Below, piece by piece: positions 2,772 to 31,798 of a stretch of DNA of 64,000 nt. A program made the position numbers and the translations under genes. Numbering within the stretch: position 1 is the stretch's first letter; each line of letters starts with the position of its first letter. The notes below the pieces were generated by a model. That model worked only from the letters and a program-made list of their open reading frames with translations. It was not told the origin of the DNA and searched no databases. The stretch is from Hormoscilla sp. (GTDB lineage Bacteria; Cyanobacteriota; Cyanobacteriia; Cyanobacteriales; Desertifilaceae), in contig JBFRWI010000053.1 in assembly GCA_051439505.1 (NCBI GenBank), positions 1 through 64,000 on the forward strand, read 5' to 3'.

Positions 2772-3401
2772 ATGATCTATTCTTTAGCGTCAGAGGCAGT
2801 TGATGAACGAGATTTACGTCAGCTACTGGAAGAAATCTATCAAGAACGCAGTCTCAGCTTTTTCTGTAAAGGTCAAAATATTCCCATGGGCGATCGGGAT
2901 ATCTGGGTAGTCTATCGCGGTGTCGTACAATTGAATGTTATCTATCCCAATGGGGAAGAGGGTTTGCTGGGTTTTGCCGCCGATTATATGCCGTTCGGCC
3001 TGCCTCTAACCGCGATCGATGCCTACTACGCAACTGCCCTATCAGATGTGGATTTAATGCGTTTGACGGTATCGGAGGTGGACCAGTCTCCTACCCTGGC
3101 CCAAAGTATTTGGCGTCAGATCAACCGCCGGTTGCGGCAAACGGAGGCCATGTTAGCGCTAGTGGGTCATCGGCGGGTAAAGGACCGACTCGTGCATCTG
3201 CTGCTATTGTTAAAGGAGGAAATCGGTCAGCCAGTACCAGAGGGCACTCGCCTGAATGTGAAGCTGACTCACCAGCATTTAGCTAATGCGATCGGTACTA
3301 CCCGCGTTACTGTCACTAGGATCTTGGGTGAATTGCGCCAGGAGGGTTGGCTGAATATTTGGCAACGTCATATAATTATTCGGTCTGGCATGAGGGGGTA
3401 A
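2772..3401 (+). CDS. Crp/Fnr-family transcriptional regulator
   Basis: C-terminal HTH LTHQHLANAIGTTRVTVTRILGEL; start could be 2739 or 2772. Confidence 0.92.
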   Translation: MIYSLASEAVDERDLRQLLEEIYQERSLSFFCKGQNIPMGDRDIWVVYRGVVQLNVIYPNGEEGLLGFAADYMPFGLPLTAIDAYYATALSDVDLMRLTVSEVDQSPTLAQSIWRQINRRLRQTEAMLALVGHRRVKDRLVHLLLLLKEEIGQPVPEGTRLNVKLTHQHLANAIGTTRVTVTRILGELRQEGWLNIWQRHIIIRSGMRG

Positions 3402-3659
3402 AGACTAAAGTCTTTACTACGAACGAGGGATAAAATGATCGGGCACGAACTGGCGAAAGAAACCGGGTTGATTCTAAATTTTTCTCATTCATAGCAATAG
3501 GGAGTAGTAGAAACCCGGTTTCTGGACAAGAGCGCGGGGCGAAGCATTTGGGCGACAATATCACTCAGAGATAGACAAATTTACTGCCCAAATGCTAGCT
3601 GCTGCGCAGCCGCTGCGCTAGCGCCCGTGGGCAGGTGAGATGCACCCCCATGAGCAAGC

Positions 3660-3841
3660 ACAGGTGCCAACCAGTGGTTTCTGGGGGAAAAAATTTTTCC
3701 CAAAAGGGTTGACAATGTAATTGGCAGCTATTAAGATGGGAAAAGATAGGTCGCCGGATTGCAGTACCTGGAAAACTTCATATACGGTACTGCGATCGCG
3801 CAGTTTAATTACACTTTGATCCCTGAGGCCCCTATGGAAAC
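3660..3841 (+). CRISPR. Putative orphan CRISPR leader with one degenerate/truncated repeat (no array)
   Basis: Promoter, then GTCGCCGGA...ACCTGGAAAACTTCATATA, then GTTTAATTACACTTTGATCCCTG; layout recalls cyanobacterial leaders preceding GTT..AATCCCT..AGGGATTGAAAC repeats. No second repeat and no cas gene in the window. Confidence 0.45.
3709..3737 (+). promoter_or_regulatory. Sigma70-type promoter
   Basis: TTGACA (3709-3714), 17-bp spacer, TAAGAT (3732-3737). Confidence 0.75.
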
Positions 3842-4046
3842 AATCGAATTCAAGACGAGACCCAAAAACGGGTTCGTAACCATTCCCCCCGAATATTCTG
3901 CCCAGTGGGAAGGCAAAAATATCCGTGTTATCTTATTGGATGATGAGGGAAACTTAGCCAGACCCATGGAACAACCGTCCTTTAAGACCATTTCCCTCTC
4001 TACACGGGGGTTGAAATTTAACCGAGACTCAGCTAATGCCCGCTAA
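3834..4046 (+). CDS. Putative antitoxin of a type II TA pair
   Basis: 70 aa METIEFKT...IRVIL...KFNRDSANAR, GAGG upstream of ATG 3834, overlaps downstream PIN gene by 11 nt. Confidence 0.8.
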   Translation: METIEFKTRPKNGFVTIPPEYSAQWEGKNIRVILLDDEGNLARPMEQPSFKTISLSTRGLKFNRDSANAR

Positions 4047-4443
4047 TATTTTCCTCGACACTAATATCATTATCTACTGCTATTCCCAAGATGAGCAAAA
4101 TAAACAAGCACGTGCTCTAGAATGCGTTAGATCGGGGAGGCCGTGGATTAGCACTCAAGTTCTCAATGAAACAGTTAACACCTTGAGACGGAAATTTTTA
4201 CTGGAATATACTCAGATAGCTGCGGTTGTCGATGAGCTAAAACAACAATTTCAAGTCGCAACTGTATCGATAAACACGATTCAGCGAGCTTTAGAGATAT
4301 CGGAACGATATCAATATAGTTACTTTGACAGTCTCATTATTGCCAGTTCTTTAGAAGTTGGTTGCGATATCCTCTACAGCGAGGATCTACAGGATGGACA
4401 AAACATTGATAGCCAACTTACTGTTGTTAACCCCTTCCTATGA
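4036..4443 (+). CDS. vapC: PIN-domain (VapC-like) toxin
   Basis: IFLDTNII, STQVLNE, SYFDSLIIA, LYSEDLQDG, VNPF motifs. Confidence 0.92.
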   Translation: MPANIFLDTNIIIYCYSQDEQNKQARALECVRSGRPWISTQVLNETVNTLRRKFLLEYTQIAAVVDELKQQFQVATVSINTIQRALEISERYQYSYFDSLIIASSLEVGCDILYSEDLQDGQNIDSQLTVVNPFL

Positions 4444-4616
4444 AAGCTAAACCCAAAGGGTGCATCTCACAATGGCACGGGCGAAGCATTCGCTTATTAA
4501 TCTTTTCGATTTATGTCCATATTTATCTGCCCGAATGCTAGCTGCTGCGCAGCCGCTGCGCAGTGGGCGCAGTGCGCGTAGCGCTACGCCCCTACAGTTA
4601 TTTTTGCAAATATGAG

Positions 4617-5078
4617 ATGAACCCAACCCAAGTGATTGTCGCCTTAAAAACTCCAGAGATTACGCCTCAAGTAAAAGATGTATCTGATGGCGAGCAAATC
4701 CCCAAATTATATGATTATCCAGTTAGAGATTTAACAGATATTTCTATCTATCTGTCGAGAGCAGATGATCTCATAGCAAAAGAAAATTTTGATGCCGCCG
4801 TTTGTGGTGCTGTGTTTATAGCTAAAATAGTGATGCGGACGATCGCAGAACATTACTCAATTGACTTTGAAACCCAAAGTCCCACAGAACTGGCTCTCAC
4901 ATTCTTTGCTTGCGGCTTCCTGACACAGTCAGATTACGAGATCCTGGTAAAAGCAATTGCCATCTCAGACCGCGTGATAGAACAACAAGAGAAAATAACA
5001 GTTGCACAAAATTTTGCAGGCCAAGCTATTCAGGTGGTGCAGCGTCTGTTTGACTTCTATTCAGGGTGCTTCTCATGA
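4617..5078 (+). CDS. Hypothetical protein, helical HEPN-like fold suspected
   Basis: ADDLI..ENFDAAV...MRTIAE...SPTELA...GFLTQSDYE pattern; no R-x4-6-H motif visible. Confidence 0.5.
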   Translation: MNPTQVIVALKTPEITPQVKDVSDGEQIPKLYDYPVRDLTDISIYLSRADDLIAKENFDAAVCGAVFIAKIVMRTIAEHYSIDFETQSPTELALTFFACGFLTQSDYEILVKAIAISDRVIEQQEKITVAQNFAGQAIQVVQRLFDFYSGCFS

Positions 5079-10510: not shown

Positions 10511-13500
10511 TTACAGTTGCGCTTCTTGCTGTTGGAAGAGGCAATAGTAACGCCCTTTGGACGCCATCAATTCCTCATGTTTGCCCTGTTCTGCTAGAGA
10601 ACCCTTATCCATCATGATGATGATATCGGCATTTTTGACTGTAGACAGGCGGTGAGTGATAAAAAACACTGTTTCCCCTGTAAATGCGGATGCCAAGTTA
10701 TTACATACTTGTCGCTCCGAATCGTAATCCAGGGCGCTAGTTGCTTCGTCTAAAATCAGCAGCTTCGGTTTCTGCAACACCGTGCGCGCGATCGCGATCC
10801 GTTGCCGCTGACCCCCTGACAGAGAGGAGCCCCGTTCTCCCACCACCGTATTGTAACCCTGGGGAAGTTCCATAATGAAATCGTGAGCCACTGCTATTTT
10901 TGCCGCCTCAATTATTTCATCAGTAGTAGCTTCCGGTTTCGTCAGGGAAATATTATCCTGCACCGTGCCATTAAATAGCAAAGTATCCTGCAATACTACC
11001 CCAATCTGACGGCGCAGAGAGTAAAGTTCCACCTTGCTAATATCATAGCCATCGATTTTAATCCGACCCGAAGTGGGTTCGTAGAGGCGCTGCAACAGTT
11101 TCATGAGCGTACTCTTACCAGACCCACTCTGACCGACTATGCCCACAAAGCTGCCCTTGGGAAAATCCAAATTCACATTGGTCAGTTGCAGAGGACCGCT
11201 AGTGTTAAACCGGAAAGAGACCTCTTCATAGGTTACGCTACCTTGCACATCGGGCATGGGGATATTATTGCGATTCGCCTCATCCGCTTCTGGGGATGCA
11301 TCTAAGATATCGCTAAGTCGCTCGATCGACAGAGCCGTTTCCTGGAAGTTTTGCCACAGTTGAATCAAGCGCAGCAGGGGACTGGTAACATAGCCAGCAA
11401 TAATCCGAAAGGCGATCAACTTACCTAGGGTAAAGGGATTATCCGATGAAGCTGTCGATAGCACCAGACCTGCACCCACCCAGAGGATAGCCAGACCCGA
11501 AACCTTGTTCAAGAAACCGCTCAAGGCACCTGCCGTGCTGAAAGTCAGCACCGACTTAAAACCAGCACTGATATATTTAGCGTAGCGCTCTTGCCATTGC
11601 CAGCGGGATTTCAGTTCTATATTCTGGGCTTTAACCGTCTGGATCCCCCCTAACACTTCCACCAGGTAACTCTGCACGTCAGCATATCGCTCTGCCTTAT
11701 GGCGTAGCTGACGCCGCACGATCGGGGATACGAACAGGGTCAACAAGCCTAACATGGGCACCACTGCCAGAGCCCAAAGACTCAGCAGCCAGCTATAGTA
11801 AAACATCACCGCGATGTAAACTACAGAAAAGACCGCATCCAGCACCACCGTCAGCGCCGTACCCGTGAGAAACTTGCGGATATTTTCCAATTCGTTAATC
11901 CGACCCGCCAGTTCCCCAACTCGACGGCGATCGAAGTAATTTAGAGGTAGGCGCAGCAGGTGAGATATCACTTCCGCACCCAGACCCAAGTCAATGCGGT
12001 TAGTCGTGTCTACAAACAGGTACGTTCGCAGCCAGGTCAGCAGCCCTTCAAATATGGCCACCCCCAGTAACAATGCCCCCAGTACGTCCAGAGTATCGGG
12101 AGACCGCTGTACCAGAACCTTATCAATAATCACCTGAGTAATTAGGGGATTAGCGAGGCTAAACAGCTGCACGAAGAAAGAGGCAATAAAGACTTGGGTA
12201 AGGATGCCGCGATATTTTTGGACTGCCGGAATAAACCAGCGGAAACCGAATTTTTCCCTTTGTTCCCCAGGAGGAGGTTGGATCAGCAGTACCTGACCTC
12301 GATCGCCCCATATTTCGGCAAAATCACCAGCACGCTTTTTAATCAGCCCCCTTTCGGGCACTGCCATTACCATATTTTTTTCCGTAATCTGGTAGAGAAT
12401 GGCAAAGCTACCTTGCCACTGAATCAGTGCTGGTGCTTTCACGCGGTTTACCGAACTGACTGGCACTTCCACCAGCTGCGCTCGCATACCCATCATTTCC
12501 GCGATCGCCCCACAAGCCTGCATCGATATTTGTCCAGTTCTGTTGAGCTGATCCTTTAAGATTTTCTCCAGGATGTCGCGGCGAAACTTGGCTCCGGTAT
12601 GCTTGCTCAACATGTGGAAGCAAGCTAGGGGGGCGTTTATCGGTCCACCTCCCCTCACGAAGGGAAATCTCGGGACTGGCGCTAGGGGGTCTTGTTCCAG
12701 TTCCGGAGGGCGATCGGGCCCATAGGGAATCTCCTCCAAGGAGCTAATTTCTGCTGTTTCTGGCTCTTGGATAGTGGTAATGGCGCTTGTTTTTTGAGCC
12801 AAGACCAGAGTGCCATTTGACTCTGTCGGACTTTCTGTCGTCACTGGAGCAATACCCGTCCGGGGCAGTTCAGATGGCAATCGCAACCCCAACAATCTCA
12901 ATCCTTTGCTCGGAGGAGAACCCGCGATCGTCAGGGTCTCAATATTTTCTGGAGACAGGGTTTCCAGGGGCAATCTGCTGCCCGTGGTATAATTCCCAAT
13001 GCTGCCACTACTGACTAGCCAAATTCTTTCTGGGTCCAGGGTCGAGAGCAGATCTTTTGTTTGCACCTTCGGCGGCCCTAAATTCACCAATGTCGGATTA
13101 TTCTCCCACACTTGAGCCGATAGTTCTTTGAGATTTACCGTGCCATCCGCCCGCCGCTGCAACTCCAGGCTCAACAATTCAAACAGCTCGCTCATGGAGC
13201 AGCTTTGCTGCAATGCTTCGGCAAAAGCTGGCTCCCGACGCATCAGGTCTAAAAAGTCCTCTGCTGCGATCGTAATGCAAACTACCTCCGTTGAGGCGAT
13301 CGCCGTTTCGCAGGCGATGCCCCGCACCAAACCTGCCCATCCTAGCACTTCACCCGGTCCTGCCAATTTCAAGCTCGCAGGCATTTGCATCCGCTGGTCG
13401 TATCCCAACTGGCGCACCTGTCCCTGATAGACGATCGACACAAAAGCTGGTAGTTTTTCCCGCACCAAAATTGGTTGTCCAATCCTGTAGCGCAACAGCT

Positions 13501-31101: not shown

Positions 31102-31798
31102 AACGTTCATCAGAGCGAAAAAACGTTCATTTGGGTTAGACGAACGTTTTTTTATGTTATCCGAATGTCGTGAGGGACAAAATCAACGTTTCTCAGTGTT
31201 ATCCTCACGTTCATCAAGAGGGAATCAACGTTAATCAGGACAAAATTAACGTTTTTTTTATGTTATCCGAATGTCGTGAGGGACGAAATCAACGTTTCTC
31301 AGTGTTAGACCAACGTTCATCAAGAGGGAATCAACGTTAATCAGGACGAAATTAACTTTTTTTATGTTATCCTCACGTCGTGAGGGACTACATCAGCGTT
31401 TCTCAGTGTTATCCTCACGTTCATTAAGAGGGAATCAACGTTAATCAGGACGAAATTAACGTTTCTTTATGTTAGACCAACGTCGTGAGGGACGAAATTA
31501 ACGTTTCTTTATGTTAGACCAACGTTCATCAAGAGGGAATCAACGTTAATAAGGACGAAGTCAACGTTTCTTTATGTTATCCTCACGTCGTGAGGGACGA
31601 AATTAACGTTTCTCAGTGTTATCCTCACGTTCATCAAGAGGGAATCACGTTCATCAAGAGGGAATCAACGTTAATCAGGACGAAATCAACGTATCTTTAT
31701 GTTAGACCAACGTATCTTTATGTTAGACGAACGTTGATTTATGTTAGACAAACCTCCCTTTGGGTTAGACAAACCTCCCTTTGGGTTAGACAAACGTT
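31102..31798. repeat. Satellite array 1: 33 monomers of 20-22 bp (AACGT core) with a 5-monomer (~105 bp) higher-order repeat
   Basis: Monomers start at 31143, 31164, 31185, 31206, 31227, 31248 and so on; five unit types cycle in fixed order. Confidence 0.95.

Follow-up and report, generated by a model that had tools for sequence, protein, structure and literature searches.

In the CreTA and crlRNA systems, as far as the available text of the reports on them describes, a guide RNA comes from one or two repeats, an effector is required, and the components lie within CRISPR-cas loci (short palindromic repeats that are clustered and regularly interspaced; PMC9458426, PMC8501985, bioRxiv 10.1101/2023.03.03.530964). 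The accessible part of PMC7862264 places BoxA elements ahead of 16S rRNA genes and cites Stringer et al. (2020) for the conservation of BoxA upstream of natural CRISPR arrays. In the order Cyanobacteriales one CRISPR family is common, with repeats of the pattern ATCCCT, 2–10 nucleotides (nt), AGGGATTGAAAC in 41 of the 81 genomes sampled for this pattern, often in hundreds of copies. Here we analyze a locus of Hormoscilla sp., a member of this order, at which a promoter and what look like a leader and the first half of such a repeat stand directly before a toxin-antitoxin (TA) operon of the vapBC type. It lies at 3653–4443 of a 64,000-nt stretch (the window; positions 1 to 64,000 of the forward strand of contig JBFRWI010000053.1, assembly GCA_051439505.1), which is contig C53 of the source genome, G000 (6.47 Mb in 232 contigs, 93% complete); the repeat pattern has no match in G000. 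We consider it likely that the part at about 3653–3824, called the module below, is a fossil CRISPR leader that has been reused as the promoter of the TA pair.

Likeness of the module to CRISPR leaders and first repeats

The repeats of the reference family are 37 nt long and have the form GTT...ATCCCT...AGGGATTGAAAC, with GTT at bases 1–3 and ATCCCT at bases 17–22. In five of the seven leaders first examined, the 11-mer ACCTTGAAAAC stands exactly 40–41 nt before the first repeat, and when 201 genomes of the order were scanned for the exact unit of ACCTTGAAAAC, 45–65 nt and AGGGATTGAAAC, 84 had it. The layout of promoter, 11-mer and repeat that an earlier note on this DNA had given for cyanobacterial leaders is therefore a real one in this order. 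Further repeats follow 29 of 30 sampled real units, and two of the sampled real leaders adjoin housekeeping genes. The sole sampled unit without further repeats (L073, on contig C8 of genome G048) is followed by what appears by eye to be the remnant of a PIN-type toxin gene.

The locus carries the corresponding pieces on the forward strand, and the letters reported in the earlier note were found where it had placed them: TTGACA and TAAGAT separated by 17 nt, the 11-mer ACCTGGAAAAC at 3766–3776, and a 39-mer at 3803–3841 that closes with the 8 nt ATGGAAAC, starting at the antitoxin ATG. The 11-mer agrees at 10 of 11 bases with ACCTTGAAAAC, which is invariant in the leaders of real arrays. It is followed by the putative 3' part of the leader relic (3777–3802), whose final ...GCGCA adjoins GTT in the manner of real leaders, and by the candidate relic of the first repeat (3803–3824), comprising its 5' 22 nt with GTT at bases 1–3 and ATCCCT at bases 17–22, the register of the 37-nt repeats. 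Measured from ACCTGGAAAAC to GAAAC, the unit in the module (3766–3841) is 76 nt long, compared with 77–79 nt in most of the matches listed. Alignment with MAFFT and nhmmer is colinear through the 11-mer, a CATATA block, the ...GCA|GTT junction and ATCCCT at its place in the repeat. The two marks by which a leader would be recognized by descent, an 11-mer at a fixed distance before the repeat and a conserved tail, are thus both found here.

The strength of this likeness was assessed against 30 sampled real units of leader and first repeat and later against 68 units picked by a fixed rule, with 4000 segments of G000 or 4000 shuffles of the segment's own letters as random controls. Anchored tests were fixed on the 11-mer and covered the 112 sites in G000 that carry it with at most one mismatch. 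The module ranks first among these 112 sites with the 30 units and again with the 68 (score 5.80, second −0.27; z 5.1), and the similarity of the 48 nt after its 11-mer to the 30 real units is matched by none of 4000 random 48-mers of G000 (z 4.6–5.8). When the parts are taken separately, the leader tail (3777–3802) is matched by 1–35 of 4000 shuffles and 4–40 of 4000 random segments, and the repeat half (3803–3824) by 0–1 of 4000 shuffles and no random segment, while the 17 nt at 3825–3841 are borderline in their resemblance to a repeat 3' end (163–218 of 4000 shuffles equal it). Local alignment of 3660–3802 to seven real leaders is equaled by 8, 2, 6, 1, 20, 0, and 0 of 200 shuffles, respectively. 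A profile built from the five Hormoscilla copies of the module alone had its best 14 of 46 matches on real leaders in a search space of 117 kb, a result that is partly circular because the searched loci had been picked by motif.

None of the single elements would carry the comparison. The promoter agrees with the consensus at 10 of 12 positions, and promoter-like sites number 6 in the surrounding 1.5 kb, where shuffles give 2.7 ± 1.8; G000 has 14 occurrences of the 11-mer, in unrelated and mostly coding contexts; and ATGGAAAC occurs 227 times against 197 expected. Taken alone, the promoter match, the 11-mer and ATGGAAAC are each no more than chance. Their colinear combination is more than chance, and we regard the evidence for descent from a leader and first repeat as good, but not conclusive. 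Of the two possibilities that the earlier note had offered, the significant likeness to real units in the anchored tests supports the one in which an array collapsed and its leader came to drive the TA pair.

Several other candidates came up in these searches. The site on contig C26 that ranked first in one alternative setting of the anchored test (see below) shows no visible promoter-like sequence and runs into a convergent open reading frame, and the sites on contig C183 are leaders of tRNA type; neither was retained as a relic. Each of the five Hormoscilla genomes holds at least 40 copies of a dispersed repeat of about 105 nt (e.g., C82:18639–18747 and C148:3926–4032 in G000). This repeat bears a weak likeness to the leader tail and repeat start (E 1.7–4.9) that is not significant, and it too was set aside. 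Within the leader tail lies a small hairpin, CTGCG-ATCG-CGCAG (3790–3803), the stem of which is invariant among the copies while its loop varies, with no covariation. A structured RNA in the 5' untranslated region (5'UTR) is not claimed, with a z of −1.85 and a compensatory change in none of 15 predicted pairs, and a small RNA or attenuator formed by this hairpin and the following TTTAATTA would be speculation only, as the terminator scan does not report the hairpin.

The promoter, the 11-mer and stable-RNA leaders

The sigma-70-type promoter sequence occupies 3709–3737 (TTGACA at 3709–3714, TAAGAT at 3732–3737) and is the sole promoter-like site on the forward strand between 3377 and the antitoxin ATG, with a transcription start predicted near 3744. 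The region upstream of it (3653–3708) is conserved and resembles an UP element, with an A6T5 tract at 3688–3698 adjoining the −35 hexamer. A stretch of this region, TTTTCCCAAAAGGGTTGACA, has five other sites in G000 at three or fewer mismatches, three of which precede tRNA genes (called by eye), and it also precedes tRNA-like sequence in G001 and G004, two of the four further Hormoscilla genomes (G001–G004) that make up our set of five together with G000.

It is also important to consider where else the 11-mer is found. On contig C183 of G000 (11825–12250, reverse strand), two tandem copies of a promoter and a leader of about 60 nt each contain the exact ACCTTGAAAAC, and these two sites outrank the module in the genome-wide profile search. 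By eye, the second copy runs into a tRNA-Asp gene, and no tRNA is visible after the first. The comparison with rRNA leaders rests on G001, G002 and a further genome, G005; the rRNA operon of G000 is absent from its assembly. Variants of the 11-mer with two mismatches stand 120–152 nt before the 16S rRNA gene in all seven operons examined, at 120 nt in the four operons of G001 and G002 and at 151–152 nt in the three of G005. In Hormoscilla, rRNA leaders contain GGGGTTGACA, a −10 hexamer TTAGAT, AGGTCGCC and ACCTAGAAAAG, and of these GGGGTTGACA and AGGTCGCC are common to the module. Given these occurrences, the 11-mer probably acts as an antitermination signal of the BoxA (Nus) type. A literature search with the literal string turned up no CRISPR paper that prints the 11-mer.

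The toxin-antitoxin pair

Downstream of the module, a ribosome-binding site, GAGG (3825–3828), and a 5-nt spacer reaching to 3833 occupy the position of the missing 3' arm of the repeat; GAGG is kept in the TA copies of G003 and G002. The antitoxin gene (3834–4046, 70 amino acids) and the gene of a PIN-domain, VapC-like toxin (4036–4443, 135 amino acids; PF01850, E 1.5e-13) follow with an overlap of 11 nt. This is the gene order of VapBC pairs, with a small upstream, co-oriented antitoxin gene overlapping the toxin gene, and the same pairing is seen in G014, a genome outside the genus. The acidic residues D8, E45, D98, and D117 of the PIN toxin are present by eye. From their sequences, the genes are an intact vapBC-like type II pair whose antitoxin belongs to an unnamed family. 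A terminator-like hairpin with a T-rich tail was found by the terminator scan after the toxin stop (4479–4495); its role is uncertain because it lies within a dispersed repeat.

The antitoxin matches no Pfam or NCBIfam entry, and its family profile matches no PDB sequence; these searches assigned it to none of the known classes of antitoxin DNA-binding domain (AbrB, RHH, PHD, HTH). The family, of about 70 amino acids with the consensus MxAIEF...FNRxEANER, has 59 cluster representatives at E ≤ 0.001 and is found in 53 of the 201 genomes of the order; it is conserved at its N-terminus (M-x-A/T-I-E-F) and its C-terminus (F-N-R-x-E-A-N-E-R). Two more members occur in G000, at C217:14047–14274 and C101:13536–13655. 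The AlphaFold monomer of the antitoxin is mostly coil (pLDDT 80), and Foldseek found nothing for it in the PDB. The model of the toxin-antitoxin complex scores 0.74 against 0.15 for the best control, with at least 96% of contacts common to the runs and a partner pLDDT of at least 71. Of 157 solved complexes, 116 reach this mark, as do 2 of 215 mismatched pairs. In this model antitoxin residues 47–69 lie on the toxin beside residues 9–10, 44–45, 97–98, and 116–117, flanking D8/E45/D98/D117, the putative PIN active site by eye. The model supports binding of the toxin by the antitoxin, and its pass may partly reflect likeness to known structures because VapBC complexes have already been solved.

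At the ATG (3834), ATGGAAAC encodes Met-Glu-Thr, and the three nearest homologues outside the genus start with ATGGAAAC (G014) or ATGGAAGC (G156 and G079) behind unrelated upstream DNA; the start codon in G002 is GTG. Because the nearest homologues start alike with no leader before them, ATGGAAAC belongs to the antitoxin gene, and the caution in the earlier note that its match to a repeat end might be coincidence was well placed. Among 30 loci of the antitoxin family in the order, the leader profile finds only two at E ≤ 1, both in Hormoscilla. With none of the 28 loci in other genera matching, the antitoxin family has no general tie to CRISPR.

The cassette in relatives

Comparison with relatives, which the earlier note had put forward as a check, shows that module and TA pair recur together and that the module also occurs by itself. 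The cassette of both (3653/3686–4450/4457) is present in G002 at 88% identity, over 3653–4450, and in G003 at 92%, over 3686–4457. Its TA genes are intact in G000 and broken by in-frame stops and frameshifts in G003 (L002) and G002 (L003); G001 (L004) and a second site in G002 (L012) hold TA fragments only. G002 also has two extra copies of promoter and leader (corresponding to 3641–3811 of the window), 500 bp apart and with no TA pair after them. They lie at 1501–2166 of L009 (G002:C1:6364586–6365251) with six tandem 21-nt units between them, and the first of them stands in place of the start of a PIN gene, of which G000 has whole versions on contigs C33 and C67.

Across the four other Hormoscilla copies the parts of the module are conserved to different degrees. 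The 11-mer is intact at 11 of 11 bases in all four, the promoter is identical at 26–27 of 29 bases and the leader tail at 21–24 of 26, and the repeat half is identical at 19, 16, 11, and 11 of 22. The region upstream of the promoter is identical at 49–53 of 56 bases in the three G002 copies and at 35 of 56 in G003. The repeat half thus appears to be decaying in the relatives while the 11-mer and promoter are kept. The copies also retain some of the likeness to real units in their own right: the repeat half of the G003 copy is significant (7–67 of 4000 shuffles as good), as is the 3' part of the leader in a G002 solo copy (7–42 of 4000). A covariance model of 74 transcribed bases, run on 14 genomes of the family, finds just the five copies, which lie in 3 of these genomes, and a scan of the genomes of 185,579 species with an exact pattern finds only Hormoscilla and one match in Saprospiraceae.

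The cassette in G000 is flanked by dispersed short repeats, one copy on the left (3536–3647) with dozens of blastn matches on other contigs and one or more copies on the right (4458–4628) that likewise recur dozens of times on other contigs. At the cassette edges stands an inverted pair of 13 nt, GTGAGATGCACCC (3637–3649) and GGGTGCATCTCAC (4458–4470). The G000 flanks beyond 3653–4457 are not common to G002 or G003, which share their immediate flanks with each other. We do not claim a mobile cassette, as rearrangement around the dispersed repeats explains the flank pattern equally well. One contig of DNA run X2 joins 3425 to 4474 with 28 other letters at a depth of about 201, which is locus-like; this junction may be another site with the same flanking repeats or a form of the locus that lacks the cassette.

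Missing CRISPR parts and the genus's own arrays

Nothing in the locus is able to work as CRISPR. A complete repeat is not present: only the 5' 22 nt are repeat-like, and the AGGGATT 3' arm of the hairpin, which the earlier note had correctly reported as missing, is absent together with the handle. Nor does the locus hold the at least two direct repeats with spacers that make up a functional array. A k-mer scan of the whole of G000 for arrays gave only protein-repeat and tandem-repeat periodicities; at 31146–31584 of the window the scan shows tandem units that recur about every 105 nt and are not CRISPR-like. Searches for Cas1, RAMP and two Cas6 families gave no match in G000, an assembly that at 93% completeness cannot prove absence. 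The single match to the ATCCCT...AGGGATTGAAAC pattern in each of G002, G003, and G004 is one conserved sequence, not an array.

The genus does have CRISPR of another kind. The sister genomes G001, G003, and G004 (L028, which is G003:C6, and L042–L050) carry RAMP genes and arrays with a different, 36-nt repeat ending in ATTAATGGAAAC, and in the array that adjoins the cas genes a separate promoter stands about 20 nt ahead of the first repeat. Cas1 was not found in G001–G004, nor Cas6 in G001, G003, or G004. G002 has one Cas6-type open reading frame. No array lies within 20 kb of this lone gene, and around it are five matches to group II intron domains (L022 and L023, G002:C1:6590000–6629999). 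No copy of the ATTAATGGAAAC-type repeat was found in G000 or G002, and the best position in G000 matches it at 24 of 36 bases, where more than 27,000 positions reach at least 17 of 36. As a relic of this genus repeat the candidate fails, with 14 of 36 bases in register, 8 of which are ATGGAAAC, and 382 of 2000 shuffles aligning as well. The leaders of the genus arrays resemble the module at shuffle level, apart from one generic promoter match on the opposite strand. The comparison with CRISPR leaders and repeats that the earlier note had proposed consequently divides: it is negative for the arrays of the genus, which are missing from G000 and alike at shuffle level, and positive, in the anchored tests, for the ATCCCT...AGGGATTGAAAC units of the order.

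Proposed origin and points against it

If the module is a fossil CRISPR leader, its remaining pieces would be a strong promoter, a leader with the invariant 11-mer, the junction of leader and repeat, and the 5' 22 nt of the initial repeat; the genus would have lost everything else of the array, along with the cas genes that belonged to it. The vapBC-like operon would begin 9 nt downstream of the fossil with its own GAGG site and its own start codon. As to the order of events, the TA pair may have been inserted into the first repeat, or it may have been joined through the near-identity of ATTGAAAC and ATGGAAAC. The fossil promoter would then transcribe a 5'UTR of about 90 nt followed by the operon. 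Should the 11-mer be a BoxA, it would bring in Nus factors and so render transcription processive. Translation would use GAGG and begin at the ATG (3834), the 11-nt overlap would couple the toxin to it, and the C-terminal tail of the antitoxin would cover the active site of the PIN toxin.

A number of observations weigh against this origin. With regard to geometry, the −10 hexamer and the 11-mer are 28 nt apart here and 21–22 nt apart in five real leaders (by eye), and the distance from the 11-mer to GTT is 37 nt, as compared with 40–41 nt in real units, which makes the leader 4 nt shorter. With a fixed 56-nt segment and a different gap setting the module ranks second of the 112 sites, and in unanchored genome-wide searches it comes third, with a marginal E of 0.65 for the profile of 30 units and a marginal 0.076 for the profile of 68 units (profile A). 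With profile B, cut to span the 11-mer, the repeat half and what lies between them, the module is not among the hits at E ≤ 5, and a repeat-only nhmmer profile misses the half repeat. The repeat halves of G002 are weak or not significant, with 60–267 of 4000 shuffles as good for the TA copy and 272–397 of 4000 for the solo copies. No array of the ATCCCT...AGGGATTGAAAC family was found in the five Hormoscilla genomes, and up to 1.5 kb from the cassette no further repeat remnants were seen in G000, G002, or G003. The upstream and −35 part matches promoters before the tRNA genes called by eye, so it is not CRISPR-specific, and the 11-mer itself occurs in tRNA-type leaders, its variants being found in rRNA leaders that share AGGTCGCC with the module. 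Finally, in the only RNA run that contains any of the stretch, seen as assembled contigs, coverage extends over 4230–4452 (from a relative, with 12 differences) and over the flanking repeats, with none over 3664–4229.

Alternative explanations

The promoter and the 11-mer cannot separate a CRISPR leader from a stable-RNA leader because both occur in stable-RNA leaders, and the distinction therefore rests only on the 48 nt after the 11-mer. With this in mind, we considered whether a promoter of stable-RNA type with its BoxA leader was duplicated before the TA pair, the likeness of tail and repeat to CRISPR being convergence or chance. Such an origin would fit the stretch shared with promoters before tRNA genes (three of the five sites in G000, and the tRNA-like sites of G001 and G004), the exact 11-mer in two leaders of tRNA-Asp type, the motifs of the rRNA leaders (GGGGTTGACA, TTAGAT, AGGTCGCC and ACCTAGAAAAG) and the marginal E-values of the unanchored profiles. 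It seems rather unlikely to us, however, as the part after the 11-mer, which by eye is not common to tRNA or rRNA leaders, is the part that scores best against CRISPR units (first of 112 sites; none of 4000 random segments), and as GTT and ATCCCT stand in the register of a repeat. In addition, no tRNA is predicted at 3000–5000, Rfam has no CRISPR-DR match on 3803–3841 at E ≤ 10, and no Rfam family reaches its gathering score anywhere in the window. The same evidence also bears on a simpler account, in which the module is an ordinary TA promoter and 5'UTR whose CRISPR likeness is chance throughout and was noticed since many windows were read. The unremarkable frequency of each single element, the marginal genome-wide E-values and the lack of likeness to the genus's own arrays and leaders are what this account would predict. 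It leaves unexplained several colinear blocks at nearly the right spacings, the first rank in the anchored test (z 5.1) with a repeat half equaled by at most 1 of 4000 shuffles, the existence of the module apart from the TA pair in the two solo copies of G002, and the homologous TA pairs of other genera with unrelated upstream DNA, and on balance we find it highly improbable.

The remaining explanations give the CRISPR sequence a present function. One is that the reuse of the leader matters for regulation: a CRISPR leader with a promoter of stable-RNA type and a BoxA would have been captured or invaded by a TA cassette, perhaps joined through the near-identity of the repeat end ATTGAAAC and the antitoxin start ATGGAAAC, which would put the pair under growth-rate- and Nus-dependent transcription. 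A drop in stable-RNA-type transcription would then let the labile antitoxin run out and the PIN toxin act. If this were so, the solo leaders of G002 and the PIN-like remnant at L073 would point to a recurrent association of array fronts and PIN TA pairs in cyanobacteria; we hold functional reuse of this sort to be unlikely. The other, raised in the earlier note, is coupling to CRISPR processing, in which Cas6 or another repeat nuclease would cut before ATGGAAAC and thereby detach the antitoxin from its ribosome-binding site, or the half repeat would make a regulator like a CRISPR RNA in the manner of CreTA or crlRNA. It has in its favor that ATGGAAAC is the last 8 nt of a real repeat in G001, G003, and G004, that G003 holds both arrays of the ATTAATGGAAAC type and the cassette, and that, in the available text of the reports on them, CRISPR-regulated TA pairs and standalone repeat-like regulators exist (PMC9458426, PMC8501985, bioRxiv 10.1101/2023.03.03.530964). 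The hairpin 3' arm is absent, however, and no second repeat or pseudo-spacer is present (complementarity to a target was not searched); Cas1, RAMP and Cas6 were not found in G000, where the genus repeat is absent even in degenerate form; ATGGAAAC is native to the antitoxin gene, and none of the 28 family loci elsewhere has a leader or repeat; and the TA genes are broken in G003 and G002. Coupling to CRISPR processing is accordingly scarcely credible, and this part of the earlier note gains no support.

Relation to described systems

If the module is indeed a fossil CRISPR leader, a vanished array can leave its promoter and leader as a usable part before a TA operon, and the Hormoscilla lineage would formerly have held the common CRISPR type of its order and then lost it. 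It would also draw attention to the strongly conserved 11-mer of cyanobacterial CRISPR leaders, which is common to tRNA-type leaders and, as variants, to rRNA leaders.

Since the defining features of CRISPR arrays and of CreTA/crlRNA systems were tested and not found, the locus does not belong to either class. It resembles the leaders of ATCCCT...AGGGATTGAAAC arrays in its strong promoter, in an 11-mer that agrees at 10 of 11 bases, in the tail ending ...GCA before GTT, in the place of ATCCCT at repeat bases 17–22 and in a unit of nearly the same length (76 vs. 77–79 nt). It differs from these arrays in having no 3' arm, spacers or further repeats, with cas genes not found in G000 and family arrays not found in the genus, in a leader that is 4 nt shorter with the −10 hexamer 6 nt further off, and in the protein-coding operon that follows. 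With orphan or degenerate arrays, standalone repeats and the CreTA/crlRNA systems, to the extent that the accessible portions of those sources describe them, it shares a repeat-like sequence outside an array beside a TA pair; unlike CreTA/crlRNA, it has a toxin and an antitoxin that are both proteins and only half a repeat, and effector genes were not found. As with the BoxA elements described upstream of CRISPR arrays and rRNA operons, the leader has a short conserved motif after the promoter and ahead of the first repeat, and related motifs occur in stable-RNA leaders of the same genomes, except that here the putative BoxA now precedes a translated operon.

The closest counterpart in predicted function is VapBC. 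A small upstream antitoxin gene overlaps a PIN toxin gene, and the antitoxin C-terminal tail is modeled over the acidic pocket of the toxin, as in VapBC pairs; in contrast to them, the antitoxin has no match among named families or solved structures, and the promoter and 5'UTR seemingly come from a CRISPR leader in place of a palindromic operator. The locus would work as an ordinary vapBC pair, with no new mechanism, and among described sequences the leader of the common cyanobacterial arrays comes closest to it, by probable descent only.

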